Positions 11,953-62,001 of a stretch of DNA of 64,000 nt are shown piece by piece (the stretch's first letter is position 1; every line of letters begins with the position of its first letter). The DNA comes from a virus (lineage: Duplodnaviria; Heunggongvirae; Uroviricota; Caudoviricetes). The notes beneath the pieces were generated by a model. The model did not search any database. It had not been told where the DNA came from and saw only the letters and a program-made list of their open reading frames with translations. The stretch is taken from IMG/VR virus record IMGVR_UViG_3300042890_003920. One strand, given 5' to 3'. Made by a program: the position numbers and the translations under genes.

Positions 11953-12009
11953 ATGTCGTTATTTAATACAACAAAGATATGGATATTATTTTATAATATA
12001 TACATTATT

Positions 12010-12456
12010 ATGAAACATTTAAAAAAATTTAATGAAAGTTTAGAACCAGTTGAGATCGATGAGTTAAAAGACTTCTGTGAGACATCACTCGCTTATCTAT
12101 TAGATGATGGGTATCAAGTTAGTGTATATGAATCAAGATTTAAAGATGTATCTGTAAGAGATAAAGTAAAGTATCCTGAGAAAGAACATACAATTGTAAG
12201 TTTGGGTTTAAAAGGAAAAATGGGTTATAGGTTATTCGATTGGAATGATATAAAAGATTATTACATACCATTTCTTCAAATGTTAGTAAGAAGATATGAA
12301 TTACTACCTTTCGGAATGTATGATAAGATTTGTTATTTTAATACCGAAGGTGGTTTTAGATATTTATCATTAGATCAAGTTATAAATGATAGGGTTGGCT
12401 CAGAACTTGGTAGTCGTTTGTGGGGAATAAATATAATGATAGTAGATAAGATATGA
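12010..12456 (+). CDS. family-A protein (MKHLKKFNES…DFCETSLAYLLDDG…WNDIKDYYIPFL)
   Basis: true start at ATGAAACAT directly after TAATATATACATTATT motif; ORF-track N-extension rejected. Confidence 0.7.
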   Translation: MKHLKKFNESLEPVEIDELKDFCETSLAYLLDDGYQVSVYESRFKDVSVRDKVKYPEKEHTIVSLGLKGKMGYRLFDWNDIKDYYIPFLQMLVRRYELLPFGMYDKICYFNTEGGFRYLSLDQVINDRVGSELGSRLWGINIMIVDKI

Positions 12457-12893
12457 AACATTTGAAAAGATATAATGAAAGTTTACAACCTAATGAGGTT
12501 GACGAGTTAAAAGACTTCTGTGAGACTTCATTGGCTTATCTATTAGATGATGGATATAATGTTGATGTTTCTATAAGAAATTCAGTAGGGTATCCAGGAA
12601 ATAATCAAGTAATCGTAAGTTTGGGTTTACCTACATATAGTGAAAGTGGTTTACTGGATTATAAAAGGTTCCATTGGAATGATGTAAAAGATTATTACAT
12701 ACCATTTCTTCAAATCTTAGTAAGAAGATATGAGTTGCTGCCTTATAGAGGTGAGGGTTATGTTTATTTTAATGGTGAGATGGGATTTGACTATTTCTCA
12801 TTAGATGAAGTAATAGATGATACGGTCAGTGGTATGAATCACATTGGTAGTAGTTTATGGGGTATAAATATAAAAATAGTAGATAAGATATAA
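12453..12893 (+). CDS. family-A protein, recent tandem duplicate of previous
   Basis: high nucleotide identity of first about 100 bp to 12010..; ATGA overlap. Confidence 0.7.
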   Translation: MKHLKRYNESLQPNEVDELKDFCETSLAYLLDDGYNVDVSIRNSVGYPGNNQVIVSLGLPTYSESGLLDYKRFHWNDVKDYYIPFLQILVRRYELLPYRGEGYVYFNGEMGFDYFSLDEVIDDTVSGMNHIGSSLWGINIKIVDKI

Positions 12894-12958
12894 ACTATCT
12901 CCTTGAGACATATACACCCAGACTCAAACTTTTTAAAAATAATTTTAATATATACATT

Positions 12959-13735
12959 ATGAAATACTGTAGAAAACAAAGTGTAAGTTCAGGAAGAACT
13001 TTACGCTATATTAAAAGTTTTAATCAAACACTTGAGAACTACTCAACTGTTGCCAATACATTTAGAGGATTACGACCATCTATTAAAAATCTTGCCATAT
13101 TAACCGCACAGAACCCACATGGTGAGCAACATTCAAATGAGTTTAACAAATCTGCGAACCAAGAACTTGAAGAGGTTCTATCTAAAGCTAAATTAGGTTA
13201 TAAAAAGGTTAAAGGTTCGTATGTTCAAAAAGAGAAATCATTTATTGTTTTTAATATACCTTATGCAGTAGCTATAGAAATTGGTACAAGATTTAAACAA
13301 GATAGTATTATCTATGGTGAGATTAACGATAAACAAAGTTATGATGATGATGAATCAATGTTATTTAAAATTATAGGAACTGATCAAAGTAAGCCAGAAG
13401 AATATAAGAAAGTTTTGGCAGAAACTAGTGTTTTTGTTAGTAGAGATAATGCGGATGATTTTTATAGTGAGATTAAAGGTAGGAAATTTATATTACCATT
13501 TTATGATGTGATTGATCAATCTGATGATCCTACGATACTTAATATAAAAAAGGATTATACTGGAAGTAAATGGAAAGGTGGTAAAGCGGAACCTACATCA
13601 ACAACAACTTATCGACTTCCTGATTGGTTATTAAAATGGCAGCAAGATCAAAGGATAAAAGAACATGAGGAAAAACATTCAATGTACAATAAATCCAAAA
13701 AACCTTTCATTAGAAAGGTAACTGGTGATAACTAA
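12959..13735 (+). CDS. hypothetical protein, 258 aa
   Basis: ORF preceded by aattttaatatatacatt motif. Confidence 0.55.
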   Translation: MKYCRKQSVSSGRTLRYIKSFNQTLENYSTVANTFRGLRPSIKNLAILTAQNPHGEQHSNEFNKSANQELEEVLSKAKLGYKKVKGSYVQKEKSFIVFNIPYAVAIEIGTRFKQDSIIYGEINDKQSYDDDESMLFKIIGTDQSKPEEYKKVLAETSVFVSRDNADDFYSEIKGRKFILPFYDVIDQSDDPTILNIKKDYTGSKWKGGKAEPTSTTTYRLPDWLLKWQQDQRIKEHEEKHSMYNKSKKPFIRKVTGDN

Positions 13736-13749
13736 AAGTAAAGTATAAT

Positions 13750-15000
13750 ATGATACAATCTATAATAGGAACAAGTTTTACCGGAGGTTATAATCCACCT
13801 TTACCATTTGACATAACTGCTAACTGGAGTTTGACAACACCTGCTGTTGTAGATGAGGTATCTTTTAAAACTTTTCTAGAAAGTGGTGAAGATGGAGATG
13901 ATGAGACAAATGAGTTAACAGGTGTAGTCATTACTGACTTCTTACTTGAAGGAAACAGGTTAACTTGTAATCTTTCTGCTAGTGGTTATAATTTTTACCT
14001 TAGTTATACAGAAGTTTCAGTTGTAAATAGTATAGGTAATATTGTAGGATTAGAAAATTTGAATTTAAGTGTTAATCAAATAACATCATTCGATCCCTCT
14101 ATTGCATTACCTAGTTCATTACTTAGTTTAGCTTTAGGTGTCAATCAAATAACATCATTCGATCCCTCTATTGCTTTACCTAGCAGTTTACAACAATTAA
14201 GTTTAAGTGATAATCAATTAACATCATTTGATCCCTCTATTACTTTGCCTAGCAGTTTACAACAATTAAGTTTAAGTGATAATCAATTAACATCATTTGA
14301 TCCCTCTATTGCTTTACCTAATTCATTGTTAGAATTAAGTTTAAGTTATAATCAAGTATCGATGAACTTTACCCCAAGTTTACCATTACCCAGTTCATTA
14401 CAATATTTAAGCTTGGATAATTCTAATATAGTTACATTTGATCCAGCATATGATTTGCCTAGCAGTTTACAACAATTAAGTTTAAGTGATAATCAAATAG
14501 TGAATTTTACTCCAAGTAACTCGCTTGGGGGTGGATTACAATATTTAGATTTAAGTGATAATCAAATAGTAACATTTGATCCTGTTGCAGCATTACCAAG
14601 TTCATTACAATCAATATTCTTAAACCGCAATCAAATTGTGACATTTGATCCCACTATAGCTTTACCTACTGGATTAACAAGTTTAGATTTAACTGGTAAT
14701 CAAATTGTGACATTTGATCCCACTATAGCTTTACCTACTGGATTATTATACTTACAATTAGCGGATAATCAAATTGTTACATTTGATCCTAGCATTACGT
14801 TACCAAATTCATTAATTGTTTTAAATTTAGTTAATAATCAAATGACAACAGCTGGTTATACTGCATCTGAACCATGGGCAAATGCTATGTCTGTGATTCC
14901 TGGGAGAGGTAGTGTATATTTTGGTGCTAATCCAAATTCTGTAAGTGGAACAAATCTTGGAACAATATTACAATCTAAAGGTTGGAGTGTAAACGTATAA
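13750..15000 (+). CDS. leucine-rich-repeat protein (about 24-aa LRR units, L..L.LS.NQITSFDPS)
   Basis: about ten tandem LRR units encoded by 72-bp DNA repeats 14070..14830; N-terminus MIQSIIGTSFTGGYNP shared with next gene. Confidence 0.65.
   Translation: MIQSIIGTSFTGGYNPPLPFDITANWSLTTPAVVDEVSFKTFLESGEDGDDETNELTGVVITDFLLEGNRLTCNLSASGYNFYLSYTEVSVVNSIGNIVGLENLNLSVNQITSFDPSIALPSSLLSLALGVNQITSFDPSIALPSSLQQLSLSDNQLTSFDPSITLPSSLQQLSLSDNQLTSFDPSIALPNSLLELSLSYNQVSMNFTPSLPLPSSLQYLSLDNSNIVTFDPAYDLPSSLQQLSLSDNQIVNFTPSNSLGGGLQYLDLSDNQIVTFDPVAALPSSLQSIFLNRNQIVTFDPTIALPTGLTSLDLTGNQIVTFDPTIALPTGLLYLQLADNQIVTFDPSITLPNSLIVLNLVNNQMTTAGYTASEPWANAMSVIPGRGSVYFGANPNSVSGTNLGTILQSKGWSVNV
14070..14830 (+). repeat. 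tandem about 72-bp coding repeats (LRR units)
   Basis: repeated …aatcaaataacatcattcgatccctctattgctttacctag… blocks. Confidence 0.7.
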
Positions 15001-15014: not shown

Positions 15015-15752
15015 ATGATACAATCTATAATAGGAACAAGTTTTACAGGAGGTTATAATCCACAAGGTCCATCATTTAGACTTATGTTTACAGATATAAG
15101 TTTTGCTAATACCCTAGTAGGGGATGCGTCAAATGTTAATGATTGGAATACATATTTAGATTTACCTCTTTTGGGTACACCTTTCACTAGTGTAAACGTT
15201 AGTGGTGATGAAGTGTCTTTGTATGGCGGAGTAGGTATTACATTAAAAACTTCTGCATTTACTATTAATCTAAAAAAAAATGAAGTTCCTTATTTAGTTT
15301 CTGTAGATGATGAAAGTGGAGTGATTGTGGAATTACAAGAAGAAACTTTTTCAAGTCAATCATTATTAACAACTGTATCTTTACCACAACTAATTACTGC
15401 AGATATTTTCTGTTTTAATGGTTGTGACAATTTAGCCATTATTAATTTACCACAGTTAACAACTGCAGGTGTTGGCTGTTTTAATACTTGTGACAATTTA
15501 GCCATTATTAATTTACCACAGTTAACAACTGCAGGTGCTGGATGCTTTGCTGGTTGTAGTTTAACAACAGTAACATTACCTCTCTGTACAAACTTAGGTG
15601 GCGGTGTTTTAAATGATAATGTGTTTTCAGACATAATTGGAAACACAATTTCTTTAACTATACCTGAGTCTTTAATGACTTGTAATTCAGGAAATCCAGA
15701 TGGTGATATTCAATACTTGCAGGCAAATAACACAGTAACAATAATAAGTTAG
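15015..15752 (+). CDS. BspA-type LRR protein, N-terminal paralog of 13750..15000
   Basis: identical first 16 aa and upstream aaagtataat; internal repeat LPQLTTAG.GCF..CDNLAIINLPQLTTAG. Confidence 0.6.
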   Translation: MIQSIIGTSFTGGYNPQGPSFRLMFTDISFANTLVGDASNVNDWNTYLDLPLLGTPFTSVNVSGDEVSLYGGVGITLKTSAFTINLKKNEVPYLVSVDDESGVIVELQEETFSSQSLLTTVSLPQLITADIFCFNGCDNLAIINLPQLTTAGVGCFNTCDNLAIINLPQLTTAGAGCFAGCSLTTVTLPLCTNLGGGVLNDNVFSDIIGNTISLTIPESLMTCNSGNPDGDIQYLQANNTVTIIS

Positions 15753-15825: not shown

Positions 15826-16824
15826 TTATCGTTTACCTTTGAATGATTCAAATGTTTTAATCCATTTTTTATTAGAAGTTTTTTCCATAGTTAAATCAGG
15901 ATTACCTAAGATTCTTTTTATAATCTCAAACGCTTCTTCTTTAGTTTTACCAGCTATTTCTTTATTTATTTGACCAATCTGTGGACCTTTTGCACCATAT
16001 TTCATAATGTCTTGTGCAGTGAATAAAACAGGAGCTTTCTCTGCTTTAATCTCAACTAATTCTGATTTTTTGAATTGGTCTTTCAATGGGCATTCTTCAT
16101 CCCATTTATCATAAGATGGATTATCCCATTTTAAAGATTCTGCATTAAAGTCATTACCCATATTATCCATTTTAGAAAATACACATAACTTATAAAAAGA
16201 TTTAGCTTTTTCATTATTATCAACACCAGGAGCATCCGCGAATATTTTAAATCTTGTGTTTGGATTTAATTCACCACCTTCTGATGGTCCACCAGTCACA
16301 CTTGCCAACCAACCTTTAATAACCATATGTTTTGCACATATATAAACAACTAACTCATTCGCACCACCTGCAGAAGCTGACTCGGCACCTGCTTTATCAT
16401 GACCTAAAGAAGTTGGCCATCCCATCTTATTAAAAGAAACAGTATCAAACTTGGCTATATCGTGATAAAGTGCTGCAGTAATCAAATCTTGATCATTAGT
16501 TTCAATTCCTCTACTCATAACTATCTTAATATGAACTAAAGAGTTTCTTTCTGGATGCCACTTAGGATTTTCATTTATATAAACATTTCTAAGTAATTGT
16601 TTTTTTAAATCTGTGCCTAAACCACCAATAAGTGAATCACACTGATCAAAAGCACCTTTATACTTATTCTCTAGTTCCATACTAACTTGTTTTTCGGTTC
16701 TCATAGATTCTGATTTGCCTAAAGCTTCATCAACTATTGTTTGTTGTACATCATTCAAAGAAACACCTTCAAGTGGATCGACATTCCACTGATCTTTTAT
16801 TGTTTTTGCATTATCACTTTCCAT
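15826..16824 (-). CDS. HD-domain phosphohydrolase
   Basis: H…HD…H…D signature (VHIKIV…AALYHDIAKF…SLGHDKAG). Confidence 0.6.
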   Translation of the reverse strand: MESDNAKTIKDQWNVDPLEGVSLNDVQQTIVDEALGKSESMRTEKQVSMELENKYKGAFDQCDSLIGGLGTDLKKQLLRNVYINENPKWHPERNSLVHIKIVMSRGIETNDQDLITAALYHDIAKFDTVSFNKMGWPTSLGHDKAGAESASAGGANELVVYICAKHMVIKGWLASVTGGPSEGGELNPNTRFKIFADAPGVDNNEKAKSFYKLCVFSKMDNMGNDFNAESLKWDNPSYDKWDEECPLKDQFKKSELVEIKAEKAPVLFTAQDIMKYGAKGPQIGQINKEIAGKTKEEAFEIIKRILGNPDLTMEKTSNKKWIKTFESFKGKR

Positions 16825-16869
16825 AAAATATTATTTTTTTTATTGTTCTTTTTTCTAATAGACTATATA

Positions 16870-17406
16870 TTATTTAAAGAATGATTTTAATTTGGTTAGA
16901 ACAGATTTATTTTCTTGTTTATATCCATCTATTATAAATTCAAACTCTGTTATATAAGATTCTAAAACATCATCAGTATCAGTATCATAATAAAGACCTG
17001 ATTTTATATCATCATTGATTAGTTTATTTACTTGGTAAAATAATTCTGTTTTACGATGAGGCCAGTGTTGTCTAGCAGCTTCTAAGTCACGTGTTACTTC
17101 TATTATGACATCTTTTTTATTTTTACGAGTATGTCCCATTTGTCTAGCATATTGTTTAAGTTCATATTGATTAGTAAGTCTGGTTAAGAATGGTATCATA
17201 TGGTCTTTTATATCGGACCATAATCTAGGATTCTCATTTAATTCTAGTGTAAGTTTGAAACTTAAACCTAAACCACTTCTAACTAACGTTATAGAAATAT
17301 TTAATTCTTCATCTAATAGATAAGCTAGATTCATTTCACAGAAGTCTTGTAGTTCTTCTTTGAAGGTGTCACCTACTGCTTCATTGAATGGTTTAATATG
17401 TTTCAT
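16870..17406 (-). CDS. family-A protein (MKHIKPFNEA…DFCEMNLAYLLDEE…WSDIKDHMIPFL)
   Basis: family motifs. Confidence 0.65.
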   Translation of the reverse strand: MKHIKPFNEAVGDTFKEELQDFCEMNLAYLLDEELNISITLVRSGLGLSFKLTLELNENPRLWSDIKDHMIPFLTRLTNQYELKQYARQMGHTRKNKKDVIIEVTRDLEAARQHWPHRKTELFYQVNKLINDDIKSGLYYDTDTDDVLESYITEFEFIIDGYKQENKSVLTKLKSFFK

Positions 17407-17408
17407 AT

Positions 17409-18635
17409 TTAGAGAATGAATTTATTTACAATACTAGATATTTGACTGGCTCCATTTTTACATATATCATGGTGTTCTACTCCTGGTATAACTGTTAAAG
17501 ATGTTTTATCATTAGGAAAATTACCTTTGTCATCTTTTTCAGCTTGTTCCTTAGTAAGTACACCTGAGTCTGTTTTACCAGCTCTAATAATTAAACACTC
17601 AACACTATCATCTAACTTTTCTATTTCTTTTGGATCTCTCTGTAATGATCCAACCATACCAATCGCTTGACTGTGTAAGAAATCTATATTATATTTTCTA
17701 TCTCCATTTTCTATATCACAATAGTAGTTCTTTTTATCTGATGAATCAAATTTATCTTCTACTATCCAAACATTATTAGGATTTTTAATACCTGATGAAG
17801 TAATAATTGATTTGATGTATTCAATAGATGTTTTACCATCATTTGTTGGTATTTCTTCTTGCTTCACACCTTTTTTCCAAACTGATGATGGATTAGTTTT
17901 ACTAGGATAATGTTTACCTACTCTTTCTGTGAATGGTTCATCTATGAATTCAATTACAAGTTCTTTTGTTGCTCTCCATTTTTCATAATCTGATTGTAAT
18001 TTGAATTCAAAATCTGATAGTTTTGCTTTACTAAAATCAAAATCTGATGGATTTTTTTTATGTACTTCTGGTTTATATGTATATTTGAATTGAATAATTT
18101 CGTCTTTTGTTGGATTAGTTTGAGAATCTTTTTCATAAAAAGGAAAGGTAACACAATTATACCTTCTCATTGTGTTATTTTTCATTGTTGTACTTACATA
18201 TTTATCAGGTGCTATTGCATTAGGAGCGGCAGCATCTATACATATAAATTTACCTTTGAAATCTGATCCTAATTCTTTAATTATCCAAAATCCAAAAGTT
18301 GTACCCATTGAAAATCCTAGAATAGATAAATTAGGATATGATTTTAATTGTTTTGCGATTTCCTTACATCTATCTTTACCATTATCTTTAACGTTCTCAT
18401 CATATGAAAATGTTATTAAGTTAAATGTTTCTTTTAACAGAGAAGCAAGTACCTCGTAATCATCTATTGGATTACCACCACCACCTGGAATTAAAAGAAG
18501 TGTTGGTTTATTTTTATCATTATCTGATTCTATTGGATAAGGTTGAATAATAAATTTCTCAGGTGATAATTTTTCTTTATTATCTTCTAATATAAGTCTA
18601 AATTGTTTATATAACTTTAAGTGTTTCATAATCAT
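17409..18635 (-). CDS. alpha/beta-hydrolase-fold protein with family-A N-terminus (MIMKHLKLYKQF)
   Basis: GFSMG nucleophile-elbow motif, LLLIPGGGGN; 408 aa. Confidence 0.55.
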   Translation of the reverse strand: MIMKHLKLYKQFRLILEDNKEKLSPEKFIIQPYPIESDNDKNKPTLLLIPGGGGNPIDDYEVLASLLKETFNLITFSYDENVKDNGKDRCKEIAKQLKSYPNLSILGFSMGTTFGFWIIKELGSDFKGKFICIDAAAPNAIAPDKYVSTTMKNNTMRRYNCVTFPFYEKDSQTNPTKDEIIQFKYTYKPEVHKKNPSDFDFSKAKLSDFEFKLQSDYEKWRATKELVIEFIDEPFTERVGKHYPSKTNPSSVWKKGVKQEEIPTNDGKTSIEYIKSIITSSGIKNPNNVWIVEDKFDSSDKKNYYCDIENGDRKYNIDFLHSQAIGMVGSLQRDPKEIEKLDDSVECLIIRAGKTDSGVLTKEQAEKDDKGNFPNDKTSLTVIPGVEHHDICKNGASQISSIVNKFIL

Positions 18636-18643
18636 TAATTTTT

Positions 18644-18868
18644 TTATTCTAATTCATCAAGAAATTTTTTATAGTCAAACTTAATCTTCTCTTTTTTGAA
18701 TTGTTTAACCATATCATTGGCTATCTCTATTCTATTTTCTTTATCTTTGACTTTCTTTAGTATATCAATTATACCTGATACCATTTGGTAATAGTTATTA
18801 TTACCAAGCTCTGCTTTTATTTCAGATTTAGATTCTTTTACTTGTGAGTATGTTTTTAAATGTTTCAT
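18644..18868 (-). CDS. small protein with MKHLKTYSQ N-terminus
   Basis: ORF 74 aa; phage-type motif taatttaatatataaact upstream. Confidence 0.5.
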   Translation of the reverse strand: MKHLKTYSQVKESKSEIKAELGNNNYYQMVSGIIDILKKVKDKENRIEIANDMVKQFKKEKIKFDYKKFLDELE

Positions 18869-18878
18869 AGTTTATATA

Positions 18879-20207
18879 TTAAATTATATAAGAGGTAGGA
18901 TTTAAACTTCCGTAACTTCCATACCCTAAATCAGATATTAAGTCAACTCTATCAGTAAAATCATTATACTTTATTTTTATTAGTTTAGTTGTAGGGTTTG
19001 GTATTTTATTAGGATCTATATCCCAAGATCCTGTTGCATATGTATTAGTTGGTGCCTCACCATTAAGATAAATATATCCATCTGAAAAAATTGAATTATC
19101 ATCTGTTATTAATGTATCTATTGGAATGGATTCTTCGATAGCTAACGTATCAATATTCATTCGCACTAAACTTCTATGTGAAGTAGTAGTACCCATTATA
19201 GCATTACTTATTATTAACTTATCATTATAAACTCCCATCCAGTGTGGCAAAGGTATAAATGATGGAGTTCCTGCATTTATAGTTTGACTATAAATTTGTC
19301 TTTTTCTAATACCATCTAATCCCCATACTTCCATTCCCATTTGACTAAATCCTGAACCGCCGGCAGCATTATTAACAATAGGTATGTAAATCTCATCATT
19401 ATAAATTAAATATGAGGAAAAAGTTCTTACTCTTCTAGATGGAACTGATAAGGTTCCAGTTATTAGTAATTCACTATATGTTCCAAGTGTTAAATCCATT
19501 TTTAAAATAATACCATTGGAAGTAGTTAATGATGGCATTATATATACATAATCTTTATAAGCTATAATATCAGTTGTTTGTTTATTCAAATATTTAGCGG
19601 GTAAAGTAAGTGTGATAATATTATCAATATTACCAGAATCTATTCTAGCGACAGTAGTTGTGGCAGATCTTGATGCTAAATAAAGGTAACCTTTATAGAA
19701 ACACATACCGTGTACTAGATTTATATTAGATGTTATAAGTTTATATTCAATTTTATCAAACTGAAGAATAAGACCATTTTTTAATTTACAATTTGTTAAT
19801 TTTAAAAAGTAAGTATCTGAAGGTCCAAAATTACCACATAAATAAAAATCAGAACCATTTCTAACAATTTCATTACTGTTTCTAACATTTATACTTGGAT
19901 CCAAATAACTTTCTAAATCTATTCTACGAAAAGAATCTGTATAATATAATAGCTCACTGCTATTTACTAAAGTAGATATATAAAAGTCTTCTGGTATATC
20001 TTTAAATATACCTCCCCCTGAGTTACTACTCGCGACTGCATTATTAGCCATTTGTAAAGAGTTTTCATAAATCTTGAGTCTTCTAAGATGTTCTTCTTTT
20101 TGTTTTTGTTGAATTTCTAACGCATCTACTAAATATTTTGTTTCTTTTAAATCTCTCTCCCTCTTTTCTTCTTCAATTTTCATAAGAATCTCTTCAATTG
20201 ATTTCAT
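18879..20207 (-). CDS. hypothetical protein, N-terminal coiled coil and beta-rich body, 442 aa
   Basis: long ORF; ttttaatatatacat motif about 15 nt upstream. Confidence 0.55.
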   Translation of the reverse strand: MKSIEEILMKIEEEKRERDLKETKYLVDALEIQQKQKEEHLRRLKIYENSLQMANNAVASSNSGGGIFKDIPEDFYISTLVNSSELLYYTDSFRRIDLESYLDPSINVRNSNEIVRNGSDFYLCGNFGPSDTYFLKLTNCKLKNGLILQFDKIEYKLITSNINLVHGMCFYKGYLYLASRSATTTVARIDSGNIDNIITLTLPAKYLNKQTTDIIAYKDYVYIMPSLTTSNGIILKMDLTLGTYSELLITGTLSVPSRRVRTFSSYLIYNDEIYIPIVNNAAGGSGFSQMGMEVWGLDGIRKRQIYSQTINAGTPSFIPLPHWMGVYNDKLIISNAIMGTTTSHRSLVRMNIDTLAIEESIPIDTLITDDNSIFSDGYIYLNGEAPTNTYATGSWDIDPNKIPNPTTKLIKIKYNDFTDRVDLISDLGYGSYGSLNPTSYII

Positions 20208-20286
20208 AAATAAAAAACTTTTTATGTATATATTAAAATAAAATCAGTATAAATGATTTTAAATATCTTATTTTTATATATACTTT

Positions 20287-20901: not shown

Positions 20902-20938
20902 TATAATTATTTAATATATAAAAGAAAAAATAATAAAA

Positions 20939-21394: not shown

Positions 21395-21411
21395 CTTTAG
21401 ATAATTAGAAA

Positions 21412-21441
21412 AGAAGTGTGGTGAAAACTACACTTCTTTTA
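21412..21441 (+). terminator. rho-independent terminator
   Basis: 8-bp stem agaagtgt/acacttct followed by T-run. Confidence 0.55.
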
Positions 21442-21610
21442 TTATACCTACATAGTAACCTTTAAAGCTACTTTCTTCAATAAGGTTCTCTGTAACTAAC
21501 CTTTCTATTTGTTGTTTAGTTGATTGCATATCCTCTTTGGTGATATAAGAACTTATATAAGTTATATGGGTTGGTAGCTTTAAATGTTTTATTAGAACTT
21601 CATCTTTCAT
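21428..21610 (-). CDS. hypothetical small protein
   Basis: ORF 60 aa overlapping rpiB stop. Confidence 0.35.
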   Translation of the reverse strand: MKDEVLIKHLKLPTHITYISSYITKEDMQSTKQQIERLVTENLIEESSFKGYYVGIIKEV

Positions 21611-22493: not shown

Positions 22494-22498
22494 ATTCT

Positions 22499-30805: not shown

Positions 30806-30886
30806 ATATATTGTTTTTAATTTTATATATTATTTCTCACAATACCTATACTGATTTTTATTGAAAAAAAAATTTATATATACTTA

Positions 30887-32374: not shown

Positions 32375-32438
32375 AAACTATATATAAATAAAAGTGATTT
32401 AATTTTTTAATATATACATTATAAAAATAATATACATT

Positions 32439-37522: not shown

Positions 37523-37699
37523 TAAAATTTGATTTAGACTTAGGACAGAAAGATTGGACTGAAAAAGATTGGATAGAACTTGATTCACGTATGAGAGCTA
37601 TCCGAAGAATGATGAAGATAAAAGATATATTTGAACATGACTGATTAAAATTTAATAGAAGATTCTAAATTTTTAGAGTCTTTTTTTTATATATAAGTA

Positions 37700-42214: not shown

Positions 42215-42257
42215 TTTTATTGGATATTTTTATAATTGTTTAACAATCAAATATATA

Positions 42258-42641
42258 TTATTTTTCTATCAGTTTCAATTCAATGAAATCTATTGGCTCG
42301 GTAATTGATGTCTTACTGAATGACTTTAAATCAAAGTAAAGTGTTTTTACTAAACTACCTTGTTTGTGTGAGTAGATTGTTATTAAAACCGGTTCAGTTT
42401 CTACTTCAAATTCTACTATAAAATTTTGAAGGAAACTAACCAATCTATCTTTATAAGTATTTAAGTTATATGGTTTATAAACATAGGTTTCCGTACCAGG
42501 ACTATTATCAATAATACGTATAAGGTGTTGTGTGTATGGCTCGGGATTTGTATAACGATTTGAATTATTAGTCATAGTTAGATCGTTCAGATCATAATAA
42601 TCTAAAAATTCTTTACTAAACGAAATTATTTCTTTTAACAT
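42258..42641 (-). CDS. hypothetical protein
   Basis: ORF 127 aa. Confidence 0.5.
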   Translation of the reverse strand: MLKEIISFSKEFLDYYDLNDLTMTNNSNRYTNPEPYTQHLIRIIDNSPGTETYVYKPYNLNTYKDRLVSFLQNFIVEFEVETEPVLITIYSHKQGSLVKTLYFDLKSFSKTSITEPIDFIELKLIEK

Positions 42642-45083: not shown

Positions 45084-45190
45084 ATTAAATAATTTAATCC
45101 TCCAAAGATACAATAAATATTTATTTTATTTAAAAAATATAGTTTTATATTTTATAATAATAATATATAATAAAAAAATAAGTAATTTTT

Positions 45191-48637: not shown

Positions 48638-48720
48638 ATTAGTTGATTTTATATTTATAAATGCAAATATACAAAAAATAATATTTTTTTTAATATATAC
48701 ATTATAAAAAAAAGTAAAAA

Positions 48721-50512: not shown

Positions 50513-50578
50513 ATTTTTGATTTGATTTACAAAGATACTAATTAAGATTTATAAAATCTATTTTTAATATATAATTTT

Positions 50579-51822: not shown

Positions 51823-52039
51823 GTATTATATTTAATTTATCCTCTCTTGCTTGTTGTATTGATATAAATCTCTGTGGTCCATAAAGACCAGGGTTTCCAA
51901 CATCATTTTTAATAGTTATCACACCATCATACTTAACCGCAAAAACTTCATATTGTTTTCCGATGGTTAGTGCTGGTTGATAATGAGTATCAGTGTTATT
52001 GATACAAACTATAAAATCTCCTTTATTGAACATATACAA
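51812..52039 (-). CDS. family-B small protein (…AREDKLNIILDE)
   Basis: tail motif. Confidence 0.55.
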   Translation of the reverse strand: MYMFNKGDFIVCINNTDTHYQPALTIGKQYEVFAVKYDGVITIKNDVGNPGLYGPQRFISIQQAREDKLNIILDE

Positions 52040-52048
52040 ATATACAAA

Positions 52049-52481: not shown

Positions 52482-52517
52482 TTAGTTTTACTAAAAAATA
52501 TTTTTTATATATACTAA

Positions 52518-53991: not shown

Positions 53992-54207
53992 ATGAAGTAT
54001 GTAAAGTGTTTATATGTTGAAATTGGTTCAAGACTAACGGTAAATAAAATCTATGAAGTATTTAATCACCTTGTAATTGGTGATGATAGTTATGTTGAAA
54101 TTATAGATAATACTGGTGATAGATCTACGTATTTAGTAAATAAAGATTGGTTTGAAGATGCGAGTGCAGAAATAAGAGATAAGAAATTAAATGATTTAGG
54201 AATATGA
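53992..54207 (+). CDS. family-B small protein (MKYVKCLYVE…IRDKKLNDLGI)
   Basis: family motifs. Confidence 0.6.
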   Translation: MKYVKCLYVEIGSRLTVNKIYEVFNHLVIGDDSYVEIIDNTGDRSTYLVNKDWFEDASAEIRDKKLNDLGI

Positions 54208-54521
54208 AATTAAGTACTACAAACCAAACAATCAAAGATGATTTACAATCATTTGTAGATGGAACTTATGATGGTATTTTAACACCAGAACAATTAAAAA
54301 TGGCACTTGAATTATCATTCTTATTTAATCATATTACTACTGATATAGATACAATTATATTCGAGTATGATACTTTTAAAGTAAAGGTTTCTGGTGTTCA
54401 TGACTTACCTTTTGAGTACTCAGAGGAAACGGTTATACATACTATAATAAAAGAAGAAGGTTTTAAATCCGCATTAAAACAATTTATTAGAGATAATAGA
54501 ATTACAAAATTATTACAATGA
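54204..54521 (+). CDS. hypothetical protein (tail …RDNRITKLLQ)
   Basis: ORF 105 aa. Confidence 0.5.
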   Translation: MKLSTTNQTIKDDLQSFVDGTYDGILTPEQLKMALELSFLFNHITTDIDTIIFEYDTFKVKVSGVHDLPFEYSEETVIHTIIKEEGFKSALKQFIRDNRITKLLQ

Positions 54522-54778
54522 TATTATCAAGAGATCAAAATTATAAAGTAGGAGACTTAGTAAATAACACTAGTGTTCATATGAATGAGCAAGCAATTGT
54601 TTTAAAAGTTCATGAGAATGAAGGTTTCTATAGTAGATGTTTAATTGAGTATCAACATTCACTAACAGTTCAAGGAAGAAAAGTTCAAAGTTGGGTCAGT
54701 GCTAAAGATTTAAGATATGATTTACAATTTTTAAGAGATAAAAAGTTAGAAGTAATTTTACAATCTACATCCTTATGA
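54518..54778 (+). CDS. family-B-tail protein (…LRDKKLEVILQST)
   Basis: tail motif. Confidence 0.5.
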   Translation: MILSRDQNYKVGDLVNNTSVHMNEQAIVLKVHENEGFYSRCLIEYQHSLTVQGRKVQSWVSAKDLRYDLQFLRDKKLEVILQSTSL

Positions 54779-54954
54779 AACTATGTAAGATAACTGGACA
54801 CTTTTGGAAACACAACTATGAACTTATAAAAAAGGATGATCCTATTTTAACAGAGGTTAGAATTTGTAGCTTCTGTAAAAGAAAAGATATTATAGTTGAA
54901 CCAACTCTAGCAGATAAACGAGATATGAAGTTAAGACAATTAGGAATAAAGTAA
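54775..54954 (+). CDS. 59-aa CxxC…CxxC protein with family-B tail (…RDMKLRQLGIK)
   Basis: ATGA overlap with previous gene; below track cutoff. Confidence 0.4.
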   Translation: MKLCKITGHFWKHNYELIKKDDPILTEVRICSFCKRKDIIVEPTLADKRDMKLRQLGIK

Positions 54955-56607: not shown

Positions 56608-56679
56608 ATTAGTGAAATTTTTTATAAAGATATAAAAAGATTATCAATGTAACAAATAATTTTTTTTAATATATAATCT

Positions 56680-57369
56680 ATGACATTAAATGAAAAAGAT
56701 AAACAAAGATTGTTATTATTCTTAGAAGACAATGAATTAGACTATACTCCAATTGATAATGGTATAATTCGTTTTCATCTTATTGCTGAGGATGGTATGA
56801 CTTTTTATGTAATAAACAACGAAGATGAGTATTTAATCACCAAATATAACAAGGATAAAGACAGACCAGGGTCAGTTCCATACGAAAACTATCAATTTAA
56901 GACACTTTCAGAGGTTTTAGAGCAATTAAAGTTCTATGACAATAATTTACCTAAAGTATACTGGGAACCTACATTAGAGTCAATACAAATAGGTTTTGAT
57001 AAAGATAATCATATAGAGGATTGGTATTCATCATTTATTAAAGATGATTGTTATAAAGTTGAAGAAGATGATCAATATAAATACTTTTCTTATACAAATG
57101 AAGGTTATAAACCAGAATTGATTTCACCATTTAATACTTTACACGAAGTAAGTGCTTTTAATGATTTGCAATTAGAAAAGATTGATAAGTTATACTTTGA
57201 AGTACATCCAATTTCTTGTGTAAAGAAAAGGGAAAGTTATTTAGTAAAGTTATTATGTAATAATGATAACATTTTCAAAGAGTATATAAACTATAAAGTT
57301 TATAAAGAAAAGGGATTAAAACTAATGTTGAATACTTTATTCAATGATATGGAAAAATATAAATTATAA
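56680..57369 (+). CDS. hypothetical protein, 229 aa
   Basis: ORF; ttaatatataatct motif upstream. Confidence 0.55.
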   Translation: MTLNEKDKQRLLLFLEDNELDYTPIDNGIIRFHLIAEDGMTFYVINNEDEYLITKYNKDKDRPGSVPYENYQFKTLSEVLEQLKFYDNNLPKVYWEPTLESIQIGFDKDNHIEDWYSSFIKDDCYKVEEDDQYKYFSYTNEGYKPELISPFNTLHEVSAFNDLQLEKIDKLYFEVHPISCVKKRESYLVKLLCNNDNIFKEYINYKVYKEKGLKLMLNTLFNDMEKYKL

Positions 57370-57866
57370 TGAAGTATTTAAAAACATTTGAAACAATTGA
57401 CTTTAATGACATTTTTAGTTTAAATGGATCAAGAGCTAAAAGAGAAGAACTTAAAGATTTCTGTGAGACATATTTGGCTTATCTTATGGATGATAGTATA
57501 AAAGAATTGAAAGTTGGTAAACCAACACTATTACAAACTGAAAAATATGTTTGTTATAATGTTGAGATATACTTTAATAAAAGTGTACACTGGAACCAAA
57601 TTAAAGATCAATTTATACCTTTTCTTCAAATGATTCAAAAAGAATATGTTTTTAGAGAAGATAATATAGGAAGAATGTGTTCTATTGCATGGAGAGTAGA
57701 AGATAGTTTGGTTACAATACCTAAACAATATACTTTAAAAGAATTATTAGAAGATAAAATAGAAACTAATTTTACTTTTGAGTTAGGTTCTGATCGCAAA
57801 GCATCTATACAGGGTAATGTTGGTTCAATAAAATTAGATATATTAGAAGAAGTTAGTAAAGGCTAA
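57369..57866 (+). CDS. family-A protein
   Basis: MKYLKTFETI…DFCETYLAYLMDDS…VHWNQIKDQFIPFL. Confidence 0.65.
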   Translation: MKYLKTFETIDFNDIFSLNGSRAKREELKDFCETYLAYLMDDSIKELKVGKPTLLQTEKYVCYNVEIYFNKSVHWNQIKDQFIPFLQMIQKEYVFREDNIGRMCSIAWRVEDSLVTIPKQYTLKELLEDKIETNFTFELGSDRKASIQGNVGSIKLDILEEVSKG

Positions 57867-57873: not shown

Positions 57874-58188
57874 TTAGATTTCTTTCAAACCATTAAAAAC
57901 AATTTTTTTATAATCACAATCAATAAAAGCTCTTTTCACTTTATCACCTTGACCACCTCTCCATTGATTTTCATTAAACCATTGTGCAAACTTAACAAGT
58001 TGTGTTCTGGTTATAAGTCCAAACTCTTCTGGATATTCCAAAATATATTTTTGTGAAAATTCTCTTGGCTCAGGAATAAGTTCTAATGTTTGAGACCAAC
58101 GAGAAGTGTTATTTTCATCGTGCCATAGATAACCATTATCTTTTTTAGTTCCTTGTGCGTCGTATTTTTTACCTGTAATTATATTCAT
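57874..58188 (-). CDS. hypothetical protein (start MNIITGKKYD)
   Basis: -7 box TATATTTG at 58208..58215 preceded by TTTG; ORF-track start lies upstream of the promoter. Confidence 0.45.
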   Translation of the reverse strand: MNIITGKKYDAQGTKKDNGYLWHDENNTSRWSQTLELIPEPREFSQKYILEYPEEFGLITRTQLVKFAQWFNENQWRGGQGDKVKRAFIDCDYKKIVFNGLKEI

Positions 58189-58268
58189 ACTTTTAATTTT
58201 AGAACTACAAATATACAAACTTATTTTAAAGTGTGAAAATATAAAAGTATAATTTAATATATACTTTT

Positions 58269-58604
58269 ATGAAACACTTAAAACAATTTGAAAGTTACTT
58301 TGATAAAGACTCTCTATGGACTGAGGCGGATGGAGATGTAATCTTAAACGCATTTGATAATGAAACAATCACTGATGCAACAAAAGAAATAGAAACTAAA
58401 CCTGCTTATCGTTCAAATGGTGACCAAGTTGAAACAACATTTACATTTAAAATAGATGGTAGATCAATCTTTGTTCAGTATATAGAGTATCCTAATAGAG
58501 ATCCACATATTGTTATTAGAATAGGTGGTTATTTTACTACTATACCAACAGATAGTGAATACCGTACAGAGATTTTAAAAAGGTGTATGGATACTATAAA
58601 ATAA
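58269..58604 (+). CDS. small protein with MKHLKQFESY N-terminus
   Basis: taatttaatatatactttt motif abuts ATG. Confidence 0.55.
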   Translation: MKHLKQFESYFDKDSLWTEADGDVILNAFDNETITDATKEIETKPAYRSNGDQVETTFTFKIDGRSIFVQYIEYPNRDPHIVIRIGGYFTTIPTDSEYRTEILKRCMDTIK

Positions 58605-58787: not shown

Positions 58788-59522
58788 TTAGACTAAATCT
58801 CGTAGTATGATTGACTTCTTTGCTAATGGTTCTTTATAAACCATTCTTAAAGTAATTCTTTTAAAATTTTGATTTATAAATGTTGGTGATTGCCATTGTG
58901 TTATGGTACTAATAAATGTGAAATATTGTGAAAATACTTCAGACATTTTTTCAAGCATTGTTTGTAATTCATTTTGACTATGATCTGTTTTATACTTAAA
59001 TGAAAAAATAAACTGATTTACATATTGATTGGATCCACCTTGTAAAATACCAGATTCTCTGGTTCTATGAATTGCTTGTTCAAAACTCCATTCATTTACA
59101 TCTAATCCTAATGTTCTAAATAAATTTATTTTACTAATTACAATTGATGATGGATTTACTTTAAACACTGTTGTATTTGTATTAAACCAAAATGTAATCA
59201 TCACTGATGTATCACTGTTATTCCAAATCTTAGTAGATGTTTGTAATCCTTCTTTCATGTTAGTAAGTTGATTACAACCAGTTATAATGTTTTCTAATAG
59301 TGTATAGTAAGTAATTATTTTATTAGAGAAGTCGTGTATATCTAAACTAGTATCTGGTAGTATTCTAGGAAAACTAACTAGTACAATTCCACCAGTTTTT
59401 TTCTCGATTACTATATTTGGATATTCATCTATTTGATATGCAAATACTAATTGTATATCTTCTATTAGTTCTGCTAATGGATCAACACGTTTTTTTGCTT
59501 CAAAAATCTTTAAATATTTCAT
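58788..59522 (-). CDS. hypothetical protein with MKYLKIFEAK N-terminus, 244 aa
   Basis: ORF. Confidence 0.55.
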   Translation of the reverse strand: MKYLKIFEAKKRVDPLAELIEDIQLVFAYQIDEYPNIVIEKKTGGIVLVSFPRILPDTSLDIHDFSNKIITYYTLLENIITGCNQLTNMKEGLQTSTKIWNNSDTSVMITFWFNTNTTVFKVNPSSIVISKINLFRTLGLDVNEWSFEQAIHRTRESGILQGGSNQYVNQFIFSFKYKTDHSQNELQTMLEKMSEVFSQYFTFISTITQWQSPTFINQNFKRITLRMVYKEPLAKKSIILRDLV

Positions 59523-59573
59523 ATTTTTTATATATTATTTTATAGAAATACTTTTTTAAATAAAAAATCCTGA

Positions 59574-60347: not shown

Positions 60348-60382
60348 AAAAATACCACTCATTTGAGTGGTATTTTTTTTTA
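60346..60382 (+). terminator. rho-independent terminator (near-copy of 58607..58635 hairpin)
   Basis: ataccactca-ttt-tgagtggtat followed by T-run. Confidence 0.8.
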
Positions 60383-60393
60383 ATATATAGTAT

Positions 60394-60843
60394 ATGATAT
60401 ATATAAAACTCTTTGATAATTTTAATCCAAATCACTATATTATAAGTTCTGATAAAATAGACGAAAGTTTATTGAATGGAATTGATGCAATACTTGCACC
60501 TATCGGTGATGATGGTTACAAGTACAATCATTTTATTTATGATAAAGACAAAGTTCATAATGATAATAGAAGATTAGAGATAAGTATTTATGTAGAAGGT
60601 GAAGATACTTTTACGGAAAAATCTAATATTATTATCGGTTCTGAAATAAAAGAAGCGGTACTTACTTTACTTGATTTCTTGAAAAGAAGAACTGGGAATG
60701 AAGCAAGTATTTATGTTTGGGATCATAATGATTATCAATTCATTGATATGAAAGATACTGATACACACGGTCTTGAAGATCTTGATGATTTAAGAGAGGA
60801 ATATGCGGAAACAGATTCTATGAAAATAGTTGTATTATTATGA
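60394..60843 (+). CDS. hypothetical acidic protein
   Basis: ORF 149 aa; ttaatatatagtat motif abuts ATG. Confidence 0.5.
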   Translation: MIYIKLFDNFNPNHYIISSDKIDESLLNGIDAILAPIGDDGYKYNHFIYDKDKVHNDNRRLEISIYVEGEDTFTEKSNIIIGSEIKEAVLTLLDFLKRRTGNEASIYVWDHNDYQFIDMKDTDTHGLEDLDDLREEYAETDSMKIVVLL

Positions 60844-61250
60844 AGCATTTAAAAATATATGAAGCATTTGATGTTTTTAAAGACAAATTAGATGAATTAC
60901 AAGACTTTTGTGATACATATTTGGCTTATATGACAGATAAAGGTGTAGTTTTAACAGTTACTCCTAATAGTCGTTTATCTAGTACTATATTTGTACTTTC
61001 TGTTAGGTCTGTTGAAAGTAGAGATTTTGAATGGAATGACATAAAAGATTATTTCATACCATTTTTAGAAGTACTTACTAATAAAATTGGTCGTGGAAAC
61101 ATCATGACAAATTCTGATCCAAATCATGAATTTAAGTTTGTAAACAATAGAGGTGTATTTTATCGTAGTTTAGAAGATGTTATCGCTGATAAAGTTCCTA
61201 ATATTATGCCTTCAATAGAATCATTATCGTTCGCTATTAAGTATTATTGA
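60840..61250 (+). CDS. family-A protein
   Basis: MKHLKIYEAF…DFCDTYLAYMTDKG…FEWNDIKDYFIPFL. Confidence 0.65.
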   Translation: MKHLKIYEAFDVFKDKLDELQDFCDTYLAYMTDKGVVLTVTPNSRLSSTIFVLSVRSVESRDFEWNDIKDYFIPFLEVLTNKIGRGNIMTNSDPNHEFKFVNNRGVFYRSLEDVIADKVPNIMPSIESLSFAIKYY

Positions 61251-61532
61251 TAGTTTTTCATTTCTAATTTCTTGTAAGGCAAATGCTTCTAACCCTTCTA
61301 ATTCAACCAATTCAGGTGAATGTTTTATTCCTTTTTCATCTATTATAACTGTGAAGTGTGTACCATTTTTTTTGAATGTTATAAGTTTCATTGTACCATT
61401 CCAACCATATGATGATTTCACACCTAATTGTTTATCAACAAAATTTAATAAAATCGGTGAGGTTTCTTCGGTAAGCCAATTGTAAATTATCATATTAAAA
61501 TTTGTGTGATACTGGTATATTCTGACCAACAA
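61224..61532 (-). CDS. family-B-tail protein (…LQEIRNEKLSIILNSER)
   Basis: tail motif. Confidence 0.5.
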   Translation of the reverse strand: MLVRIYQYHTNFNMIIYNWLTEETSPILLNFVDKQLGVKSSYGWNGTMKLITFKKNGTHFTVIIDEKGIKHSPELVELEGLEAFALQEIRNEKLSIILNSER

Positions 61533-61953
61533 TTGCTAAAACACTTTTCTCAAATCTATTACCATCATTATCAATAAATATAACTTGATGAATACCTGGG
61601 GTTACTTTTACTTTCATTTTTGGTGTATCTCCTAACACTTTACCATCCAAAACCACTTTTGATGTTGGAGTTGAACTTATATTTAAGTAACCTGTTGGTT
61701 CTGATCTTAAATATTTTAGTAGAAGATTACCTATTCCCATAATAATTAGACCGAGTAGTCCAATCGCAATGGCACCAAGTACAATTACTAAATAAATTGC
61801 AACACCGATCCATAAAGGTGAAGTGACCCACCACCAAGACCAAGTCGCGACTTGTCCTACTCCACCTAGTTTAAGACCTAGAAATAAAAGAAAAAGTAAT
61901 CCAGCAAAGCTGATACCACTTGATTGTTGTTGTTTTGTTATAGTTTTCTTCAT
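61495..61953 (-). CDS. membrane protein (multiple TM helices)
   Basis: ORF 152 aa. Confidence 0.5.
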   Translation of the reverse strand: MKKTITKQQQSSGISFAGLLFLLFLGLKLGGVGQVATWSWWWVTSPLWIGVAIYLVIVLGAIAIGLLGLIIMGIGNLLLKYLRSEPTGYLNISSTPTSKVVLDGKVLGDTPKMKVKVTPGIHQVIFIDNDGNRFEKSVLAIVGQNIPVSHKF

Positions 61954-62001
61954 TTATATTTTATTTATTTTTTTGAAAAAGTTGAATTTAATATATACTT
62001 A

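Follow-up and report, generated by a model that had tools for sequence, protein, structure and literature searches.

What starts transcription at the many short gene blocks of IMGVR_UViG_3300042890_003920, a Caudoviricetes record of the IMG/VR database, and do the resulting mRNAs carry a leader at all? We analyzed a stretch of 64,000 nucleotides (nt) of this record, here called the window. A first-pass annotation had drawn attention to a recurrent AT-rich motif abutting start codons and had proposed it as an element-specific promoter giving leaderless or near-leaderless transcripts. We found that the motif marks transcription-unit starts, and we hold it to be probable that it is a phage-specific promoter in the style of the late promoters of phage T4, often abutting the ATG and read by the host RNA polymerase core together with a sigma factor of the gp55 family. 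It stands next to a second promoter type, the Bacteroidetes sigma-A promoter (TTTG / TAnnTTTG, here called host-type), which precedes many operons of the window.

The conserved core of the motif, TWATATATA, was present at 33 sites on both strands of the window, compared with 13.1 ± 3.9 expected from dinucleotide shuffles, and 0 of 100 shuffles reached 33. The literal string TAATATATACWTT occurred five times (0.07 expected). Twenty-four of the 33 core sites lie fully in intergenic DNA, which accounts for 6.9% of the window. The motif could have been equally common in coding DNA, an outcome that the first-pass annotation had named as speaking against a promoter, but its intergenic density is about 36-fold higher. 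Among the AT-only 9-mers of intergenic DNA, TAATATATA ties for the commonest, with the remaining top 9-mers overlapping this motif. From 113 unique sites, a logo gave the consensus T(-14) T W A T A T A T A, followed by A, C, or G, with T-14 at 85% and a T just before the ATG (T-1) at 79%; T-1/A+1 is the preferred combination. Apart from this last T, the (A/T)TT tail ascribed to the motif earlier is not conserved. The logo showed no partner box at -33/-35, and no TTTG peak was found upstream of the motif; this sets it apart from the host TAnnTTTG class, which does have an upstream TTTG box, as had been suggested. Escherichia coli-type -35/-10 promoters were not enriched in the window (107 found, 111 expected).

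Using a gene set of 142 window proteins from simple ATG-open reading frame (ORF) calls, we found the motif within 40 nt upstream of 27 genes (Table 1). Counted after the 10-mer, the spacer measures 3 to 6 nt in 16 of them (3 nt in 11) and 14 to 38 nt in 11. The earlier count of at least 25 genes with the motif ending 1 to 3 nt before the ATG was therefore right about a real, enriched motif and too generous about its proximity. With a unit start defined as a gene whose upstream neighbor is divergent or at least 25 nt away, the motif is found at 27 of 53 transcription-unit starts and at only 2 of 89 operon-internal genes; a host-type box is found at about 17 of the 53. Divergent spacers of 50 to 110 bp typically pair TAnnTTTG with the motif, one on each side, two spacers contain back-to-back motif copies, and a terminator-like hairpin with a T-run lies directly before the copies at 37687 and 60381. 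The plus- and minus-strand sites listed by the first-pass annotation were recovered (marked in Table 1), those on the plus strand 0 to 9 nt from where it had placed them. Its longer-spaced sites 3404 and 48690 were recovered as well, 23 nt (3405) and 20 nt (48691) upstream of their genes. Of the two tandem copies reported at 32405, the one at 32408 is full and the second, at 32426, is truncated, and the site reported at 32978 before thyA is a poor match, reading TTTATACATTATAT after a terminator hairpin. The gene behind site 11994 starts at 12010, not at 11953, and further sites lie to the left of the range first given (2102-2111, 3185-3194, 3405-3414, and 8862-8871).

The host-type promoters of the same DNA allowed a calibration of the transcription start. 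Their TAnnTTTG boxes have a TTTG peak 23 to 24 nt upstream, as expected of genuine sigma-A promoters, and clade-wide their distance to the gene start is bimodal, with 3 to 5 nt (mode 4), a gap at 7 to 15 nt, and then 17 to 26 nt. In Flavobacterium johnsoniae the -7 box extends from T-12 to G-5, and 4 to 5 nt separate the box from the start site; in the Bacteroidetes sigma-A -7 box, T-8, T-7, T-6, and G-5 are near-invariant (PMC6847099). The -7 box of F. psychrophilum also spans -12 to -5, and leaderless mRNAs make up only 5.5% in that species (PMC9723704). Given the box-to-start distance known from Flavobacterium, a 4-nt spacer would place +1 on the A of an abutting ATG. In the modal class of motif sites, the last conserved A lies 4 nt before the ATG, so that by the same calibration TWATATATA would occupy -13 to -5, with the extra T at -14. 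At 168 long-leader sites, positions 14 to 17 from the first T of the motif are 74 to 80% A, and position 14 is the site of the ATG's A in the 3-nt class. The near-absence of spacers of about 8 to 13 nt would be expected if the mRNA needs either no leader or one of ribosome-loading length. Together this is good circumstantial evidence that in about 60% of the window cases, and about 45 to 55% clade-wide, the start codon lies at start-site distance and the mRNA would be leaderless; the remaining cases would have an A-rich leader of 14 to 30 nt. The leaderless transcripts proposed at the outset thus gain support from the spacing calibration and from the A-run of the leadered class, with the start site as predicted here. 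Such a design would not be confined to the phage-specific class, since host-type sigma-A promoters often lie 3 to 5 nt from the start codon too.

Outside the window, about 2 Mb of related metagenomic contigs from huge phages contain the motif again, and its spacing there is likewise bimodal. Six syntenic relatives (L001 to L006) keep it at the same junctions; they are too close or not alignable for phylogenetic footprinting. In addition, half of the motif-adjacent genes have a conserved N-terminal peptide in common, here called the leader peptide, which the first-pass annotation had missed, and when IMG/VR was scanned for the motif together with the first five leader codons, 70 loci on contigs of up to 501 kb were retrieved. 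When the sites used for retrieval are left out, 263 of the 347 remaining motif sites in these loci are intergenic, and the distance to the next ATG is 3 nt at 67 sites, 4 nt at 31, and 5 nt at 13, followed by a trough at 8 to 14 nt and a second rise at 15 to 25 nt. Two further locus sets were gathered independently of the motif, around a gene for an extracytoplasmic-function-like (ECF-like) sigma factor (586 kb) and around a gp55-like gene (835 kb). In the former, 173 of 233 motif sites are intergenic; in the latter, 299 of 341 are, compared with 10.9% intergenic sequence, and the spacers again cluster at 3 nt (47 sites), 4 nt (37), and 5 nt (7), with a trough at 8 to 14 nt and a broad peak at 15 to 30 nt. 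Counting the window, the modal spacer is 3 to 4 nt in all four data sets. No protein homology was detected between the window and the sigma or gp55 loci. Since most of the contigs share no detectable protein with the window, the motif is a clade-wide signal rather than a local duplication.

The leader peptide, MK[YH][LI]Kx[FY][EN], begins 25 genes of the window, all in motif-headed units. Sixteen of the 25 are paralogues of one family of about 150 amino acids (aa) with 21 to 36% identity and the motifs DFCETxLAYLxDxGF...WxxIKDxxIPF; the others are unrelated past the first 8 to 9 residues. Across the loci, 142 unique leader proteins, compared by BLAST without their first 12 residues, formed 87 clusters. 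Position 7 is F or Y in 96% and position 8 is E or N in 86%, neither of which was imposed by the search. Operon-internal leader genes keep the peptide and are without the motif, and in the loci only 2 of 170 leader genes stand behind a host-type box. Synonymous codons of the leader match genome-wide usage, which points to selection on the peptide and not on RNA or DNA; selection at the RNA level on the conserved 5' coding stretch was ruled out on this ground. In a model of the paralogue family, residues 1 to 9 are the least confident (predicted local distance difference test [pLDDT], <50), and a search for its fold returned no credible PDB match (best E = 0.15). With the peptide common to motif-adjacent genes and the conserved stretch running into the coding sequence as ATGAAAYATTTAAAA, the repeat looks longer than the proposed promoter itself.

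We compared 150 motif-preceded proteins without leader peptide, from the 70 IMG/VR loci and the window, with 68 proteins encoded behind host-type boxes. The motif-preceded set includes a tail sheath of 1,221 aa, four baseplate wedge proteins, three head-tail adaptors, two head-closure proteins, tail fibers, a T4-like portal (Pfam Portal_T4, 3.9e-58), and many homing endonucleases of the HNH, GIY-YIG, and EndoVII types. Behind host-type boxes we found RtcB, RNA ligases, thymidylate kinase, a peptidase, and phosphohydrolases, and there were no structural genes among these 68 proteins. The simplest reading is a two-class program in which host-type promoters would serve early genes and the motif late, or middle plus late, genes; the wider wording is chosen because some motif-preceded genes are not classical late genes. 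The likeness to phage late promoters noted earlier is supported in the related contigs by this division between structural genes and early-type enzymes.

A candidate reader was found in the same clade. When T4 gp55 was compared by phmmer with all six-frame ORFs of the loci collected, the top three matches were orthologous ORFs of 121 aa on L068, L072, and L034, loci that had been retrieved through the motif plus leader. They match PHROG 234, "late sigma transcription factor" (E = 2.8e-8 and 4.4e-6), and an hhalign comparison with T4 gp55 gave 28% identity over 80 columns, including the YxNNK(D/E)L and NF(D/N)ExKxxNxxAYxT blocks. An AlphaFold model (pLDDT, 82.8) has four helices, and its top PDB match in Foldseek is 7d7c_F, the gp55 chain of a gp55-dependent open complex (probability, 1.00; TM-score, 0.65), followed by sigma region-2 domains; a profile of the gp55-like protein found no match among PDB sequences. 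Homologues number 467, the top 120 of them at least 72% identical, on contigs of 770, 642, 641, 640, 629, and 594 kb. The gene occurs on at least 259 IMG/VR contigs, of which two come from the window's own sample and three are also in the motif-plus-leader list. Judged by its sequence and predicted fold, this is a conserved gp55-family late sigma encoded by the clade. The region upstream of the gene has a conserved TATATAACATGAAAG block, about 55 to 60 nt from the ATG, and after it a hairpin that is also conserved; this suggests a regulated leader.

The clade has a second sigma factor, an ECF-like protein of 206 aa (L020:10093-10713, plus strand) with matches to Pfam Sigma70_r2 (1.6e-8) and Sigma70_r4_2 (2.8e-11); further copies define loci L081 to L168. 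It has 221 homologues, the top 120 at least 72% identical, on contigs of up to 711 kb. A fixed-spacing element, AAACAAA-N13-(T)TACTATATA, is located 13 to 30 nt before its ATG and almost only before that gene; it may be an autoregulated or "middle" promoter.

In the mechanism that we favor, operons of early small genes would be transcribed from the host sigma-A promoter, with TTTG at -33 and TAnnTTTG at -7. A second class of units would depend on the single element T-T(A/T)ATATATA at -14 to -5, with the start 5 nt past its last A. Host RNA polymerase core carrying the phage gp55-family late sigma would melt this AT-rich element and start at a fixed downstream distance. Where the start codon is placed at that distance, the mRNA would begin with AUG; elsewhere it would have an A-rich leader. 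This class would drive virion genes, homing endonucleases, and a large set of otherwise unrelated MK[YH][LI]Kx[FY][EN] proteins.

Several points weigh against this mechanism. We infer the start site, the late timing, the identity of the factor, and its presence in this phage, and start site, timing, and leaderless state are all read from geometry, in which some motif-ATG spacings are approximate because the gene calls are simple ATG-ORFs. The motif also precedes genes for a ribonucleotide reductase small chain, a DNA methylase, Acb1, and ClpS. Its sequence agrees with the T4 late element TATAAATA at only 3 of 8 positions when both start at -13. The sigma-like reader suggested by the first-pass annotation has a counterpart in the clade's gp55-family protein, but searches of the window, its 10-kb left flank (L078), and the syntenic L001 to L006 turned up no gp55-like gene, with about 16 kb of the window's own 92.8-kb contig and the rest of the genome lying outside these searches. 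The link to this phage's own factor would thus run through clade membership and co-occurrence in the same sample. No sigma or RNA polymerase gene was among the top 25 Pfam/PHROG families listed for the 142 window proteins or was found by local hidden Markov model searches, and a JGI scan meant to tie either the ECF-like sigma gene or the gp55-like gene to the window's own contig returned no contig of the window's lineage. Finally, the conserved ECF-like sigma could equally read the motif.

This last possibility, with the gp55-like protein serving other promoters, is the strongest of the rival explanations, and we think it unlikely. The ECF-like sigma has regions 2 and 4 and is highly conserved in the clade, its loci are rich in the motif, and three IMG/VR contigs carry its gene as well as motif and leader. 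A sigma with region 4, however, normally depends on a -35 element, which is lacking in the motif class. The element upstream of its own gene does end in TACTATATA, close to the motif, yet AAACAAA-N13-TACTATATA is essentially confined to the sigma gene, which suggests a separate private promoter. The gp55 family, by contrast, is the known reader of single-element late promoters without a -35 box (PMC1524935).

The motif might instead be a variant -7 box of the unmodified host sigma-A holoenzyme, with no separate temporal class. When the abutting copies are read as leaderless promoters, they fall into the register of the host box (-12 to -5) and share its A-11, T-8, and T-6. What makes this quite improbable is that the motif lacks T-7 and G-5, near-invariant in the host box (PMC6847099), that there is no -33 TTTG peak of the kind present at TAnnTTTG sites of the same DNA, and that the two classes precede different kinds of genes, with leader genes behind host-type boxes in just 2 of 170 cases.

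Slightly less probable again is an action at the RNA level, with the motif as an AU-rich translation-initiation or regulatory site in the 5' untranslated region that replaces the Shine-Dalgarno sequence. Bacteroidetes do initiate translation without Shine-Dalgarno sequences, on A/U-rich regions (PMC6847099), and the motif directly precedes many start codons. Yet 87 of the 89 operon-internal genes, including translated leader genes, are without it, and its spacing is not fixed but bimodal (3 to 5 or 14 to 30 nt), a pattern shared by host promoter boxes. Moreover, copies often come right after terminator hairpins or in divergent spacers of 50 to 80 bp, with no room for another promoter. Lastly, that the repeat is a functionless by-product of the duplication of MKYLK paralogues, as 16 or more window paralogues sharing leader and core domain and a conserved stretch continuing into the coding sequence might suggest, is scarcely credible, given that the motif precedes unrelated sheath, portal, baseplate, and endonuclease genes, occurs on contigs without detectable protein homology to the window, and is not kept by operon-internal paralogues that keep the leader, the leader proteins themselves forming 87 unrelated clusters.

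Nothing relevant came up when the literature was searched for the motif string or for late promoters of Bacteroidetes phages that give leaderless mRNAs, and the huge-phage paper PMC7162821 contains no promoter analysis; for phiKZ, the literature reports no leaderless early transcripts. To judge from the searchable literature, neither the promoter consensus nor the leader peptide linked to it seems to have been described before. The largest known phages, Bacteroidetes phages of "Mahaphage" size (600 to 770 kb), are uncultivated, and nearly all of their genes are unannotated. If the T4-style late promoter is real, sequence alone would suffice to assign thousands of unknown genes to temporal classes, by the contrast between the late motif and early promoters of the host type. 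About half of the late mRNAs would be leaderless, which would be unusual for a phage and for Bacteroidetes and would bear on initiation without Shine-Dalgarno sequences. The linked leader would flag a large candidate set of virion-packaged, possibly injected effectors, and the motif and the gp55-like protein would form a defined pair for in vitro work.

Table 1. Motif copies, host-type comparison elements, spacers, and leader genes of the window, and gp55-like ORFs of related loci. Distances are from the end of the 10-mer; "listed" marks sites already given in the first-pass annotation.
Coordinates	Strand	Element	Position and context	First-pass annotation
2102..2111	-	motif, variant AAATATATAG	26 nt upstream of collagen-repeat tail-fiber-like gene 267-2075(-)	
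3185..3194	-	motif, TAATATATAC	24 nt upstream of leader gene 2756-3160(-), N terminus MKYVKLFE	
3405..3414	+	motif, variant AAATATATAC	23 nt upstream of leader gene 3438-3941(+), N terminus MKHIKEFN	listed
8862..8871	+	motif, TAATATATAC	5 nt to ATG of 8877-9293(+); divergent from host-type promoter of 8482-8790(-)	listed
11994..12003	+	motif, TAATATATAC	6 nt to ATG at 12010 (MKHLKKFNES); heads two-gene unit 12010-12893	listed
12946..12955	+	motif, TAATATATAC	3 nt to ATG of 12959-13735(+); heads unit with leucine-rich-repeat genes	listed
16863..16872	-	motif, TAATATATAG	38 nt upstream of HD-domain gene 15826-16824(-)	listed
18872..18881	-	motif, TAATATATAA	3 nt to ATG of 18644-18868(-) (MKHLKTY); heads unit 18868->16870, three leader genes	listed
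20226..20235	-	motif, TAATATATAC	18 nt upstream of 18879-20207(-); back-to-back with site 20274, 79-bp divergent spacer	listed
20274..20283	+	motif, TTATATATAC	3 nt to ATG of 20287-20901(+), N terminus MKYLKSFN	listed
20912..20921	+	motif, TAATATATAA	17 nt upstream of 20939-21394(+)	
30823..30832	-	motif, TAATATATAA	17 nt upstream of 30095-30805(-)	listed
30874..30883	+	motif, TTATATATAC	3 nt to ATG of 30887-31471(+), N terminus MKHLKTFD	listed
32378..32387	-	motif, TTATATATAG	3 nt to ATG of 31979-32374(-) (MRYLKRFN); heads two-gene leader unit	
32408..32435	+	motif, tandem: full TAATATATAC 32408-32417 and truncated AATAATATAC 32426-32435	truncated copy 3 nt to ATG of 32439-32648(+)	listed
37687..37696	+	motif, TTATATATAA	3 nt to ATG of 37700-38110(+); heads three leader genes 37700-39031	listed
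42251..42260	-	motif, TAATATATAT	weaker candidate, 36 nt upstream of DUF4874/DUF4832 gene 40754-42214(-); overlaps end of upstream ORF	
45161..45170	+	motif, TAATATATAA	20 nt upstream of 799-aa gene 45191-47590(+); divergent from host-type promoter of 44868-45083(-)	
48691..48700	+	motif, TAATATATAC	20 nt upstream of collagen-repeat tail-fiber-like gene 48721-50202(+); A-run from predicted +1	listed
50565..50574	+	motif, TAATATATAA	4 nt to ATG of 50579-51019(+), N terminus MKYLKPFN	listed
52505..52514	+	motif, TTATATATAC	3 nt to ATG of 52518-52937(+); heads three leader genes 52518-53823; kept in syntenic L001, L005	listed
56667..56676	+	motif, TAATATATAA	3 nt to ATG of 56680-57369(+); heads unit with leader gene 57369-57866	listed
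58255..58264	+	motif, TAATATATAC	4 nt to ATG of 58269-58604(+) (MKHLKQFE); divergent from host-type promoter of 57874-58188(-)	listed
59528..59537	-	motif, TAATATATAA	5 nt to ATG of 58788-59522(-), N terminus MKYLKIFE	
60381..60390	+	motif, TAATATATAG	3 nt to ATG of 60394-60843(+); heads unit with leader gene 60840-61250	listed
61989..61998	+	motif, TAATATATAC	3 nt to ATG of 62002-62469(+) (MKYLKRFN); kept in syntenic L001, L005, L006	listed
63949..63958	-	motif, TAATATATAA	14 nt upstream of 63614-63934(-)	listed
52034..52048	-	host-type -7 box TATATTTG, not motif	3 nt to ATG of 51812-52033(-)	
before 62727-62939	+	host-type TATCTTTG, not motif	then 5 nt to gene start	
8482/8877		divergent spacer	host-type box/motif	
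11641/12010		divergent spacer	host-type box/motif	
44868/45191		divergent spacer	host-type box/motif	
50249/50579		divergent spacer	host-type box/motif	
52293/52518		divergent spacer	host-type box/motif	
56308/56680		divergent spacer	host-type box/motif	
57874/58269		divergent spacer	host-type box/motif	
20208-20286		spacer	two back-to-back motif copies	
30806-30886		spacer	two back-to-back motif copies	
2154-2705	-	leader gene(s)		
2756-3160	-	leader gene(s)		
16870-18868	-	leader gene(s)		
58788-59522	-	leader gene(s)		
3438-3941	+	leader gene(s)		
12010-12893	+	leader gene(s)		
20287-20901	+	leader gene(s)		
37700-39031	+	leader gene(s)		
50579-51621	+	leader gene(s)		
52518-53823	+	leader gene(s)		
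57369-57866	+	leader gene(s)		
58269-58604	+	leader gene(s)		
60840-61250	+	leader gene(s)		
62002-62469	+	leader gene(s)		
30887-32374	both	leader genes		
L034, from ~6290	+	gp55-like ORF		
L068	-	gp55-like ORF		
L072	-	gp55-like ORF		
L170-L249		gp55-like ORFs	further loci	

The 64 kb of the window come from a huge, uncultivated Bacteroidetes phage. This assignment follows from the homologues of the window's most expanded protein family, which occur only in metagenomes, on contigs of up to 648 kb, and from the sigma-A promoters before many of its operons; an exact-protein match locates the window on a JGI metagenome contig of 92,785 bp, and the largest known phage genomes belong to this size class and host phylum (PMC7162821). 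No relatives were found among 50,697 records of known phages by megablast of 20 kb or by tblastn with two proteins. The window has a G+C content of 30%, short ORFs crowd both strands, and overlaps of 4 nt are frequent. Identifiable genes encode ThyA, FolD, RpiB, a pirin, an SPFH protein, methyltransferases, two collagen-repeat tail-fiber-like proteins, and leucine-rich-repeat proteins.

Some further features of the window were observed. The thyA gene (33025-34128, plus strand) encodes 367 aa, compared with about 265 positions of the Pfam thymidylate synthase profile, the roughly 100 extra residues being insertions or an extension. A tRNA of 100 nt at 11023-11122 (minus strand; Rfam, 37.3 bits) was missed by ARAGORN; either its variable arm is long or it contains an intron, and a host-type TATCTTTG box lies upstream of it. 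Another tRNA-like sequence is located at about 39700-39775 (minus strand), just upstream of gene 39026-39682 (minus strand), and has the T-arm GGTTCGAGTCC. Long operons of genes for about 60 to 125 aa stand behind host-type promoters at about 21400-29900 (minus strand), 36580-36790 (plus strand), 51622-51819 (minus strand), and 53992-54954 (plus strand). Many of their proteins have the N terminus MKV(I/K)C(V/I) and a common C-terminal motif, R(D/E)xKLNxL(G/L)I, and look like a second expanded family of small proteins, on the "early" side. The adjacent leucine-rich-repeat genes 13750-15000 and 15015-15752 (both plus strand) are identical in their first 21 coding bases and are each preceded by AAAGTATAAT; the pair looks like a recent tandem duplication.

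Among known systems, the late promoter of T4 is the closest. It consists of a single TATAAATA at -13 to -6, read by gp55 without a -35 element, and T4 relatives with diverged gp55 have diverged motifs, with the consensus NATAAATA/CTAAATA (PMC1524935). The present motif is likewise one AT-rich element of 8 to 9 bp without a -35 box, beginning at -13 if the start is placed as above. It precedes virion, homing endonuclease, and internal-protein-like genes, and its clade has a gp55-family protein. We classify it as a variant of the T4-type late promoter, since the architecture and the 5' boundary are the same and the sequence differs. Unlike T4 gp55 (185 aa), the clade protein has only 121 aa; unlike in T4, about half of the sites abut the ATG, and the Bacteroidetes host has a box of its own at -12 to -5. 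T4 late mRNAs carry Shine-Dalgarno leaders. T4 late transcription also uses gp33 and the DNA-loaded gp45 sliding clamp together with gp55, which couples it to replication, and the likeness drawn here concerns the element and the gp55-like protein.

With the start so placed, the Bacteroidetes sigma-A promoter shares with the motif the register of -12 to -5 and, in these phages, the bimodal distance to start codons. It differs in its -33 box and in its gene class; the motif has A instead of T at -7, A instead of G at -5, and an extra T-T at -14/-13. In poxvirus late promoters, a TAAATG initiator overlaps the start codon, almost no leader is encoded, and the poly(A) heads of the mRNAs arise by slippage. 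The likeness to these viruses is that the core of a late promoter abuts or overlaps the ATG; polymerase, host domain, and sequence are unrelated, and the only point of contact with the poly(A) heads is the A-run at +1 to +4 of the leadered class.

For the leader peptide, the nearest counterpart is the T4 internal proteins' capsid-targeting sequence, MKTYQEFIAE in IPII and IPIII and MKTFKEFTST in IPI. In T4 this sequence directs its protein into the prohead and is then cut off by the prohead protease. It is the sole feature common to the diverse internal proteins of T-even phages, with residues 4 and 7 responsible for targeting (PMC9026906, PMC3012670). As with ipI, ipII, and ipIII, unrelated small proteins here share only a short N-terminal peptide (10 residues in T4), and the two peptides agree in M1, K2, F7, and hydrophobic or aromatic residues at positions 3 to 4, a similarity too short to establish homology. 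Where T-even phages have a handful, the 64 kb of the window hold 25 leader genes, and the sample includes at least 87 unrelated families. By analogy, we tentatively propose that promoter and octapeptide might form a portable "express late, load into capsid" cassette, with dozens of unrelated proteins packaged and injected and leaderless mRNA as the default for late translation. If so, these phages would possess a greatly expanded version of the T4 internal-protein arsenal, in a phylum with only about 5% leaderless host mRNAs.

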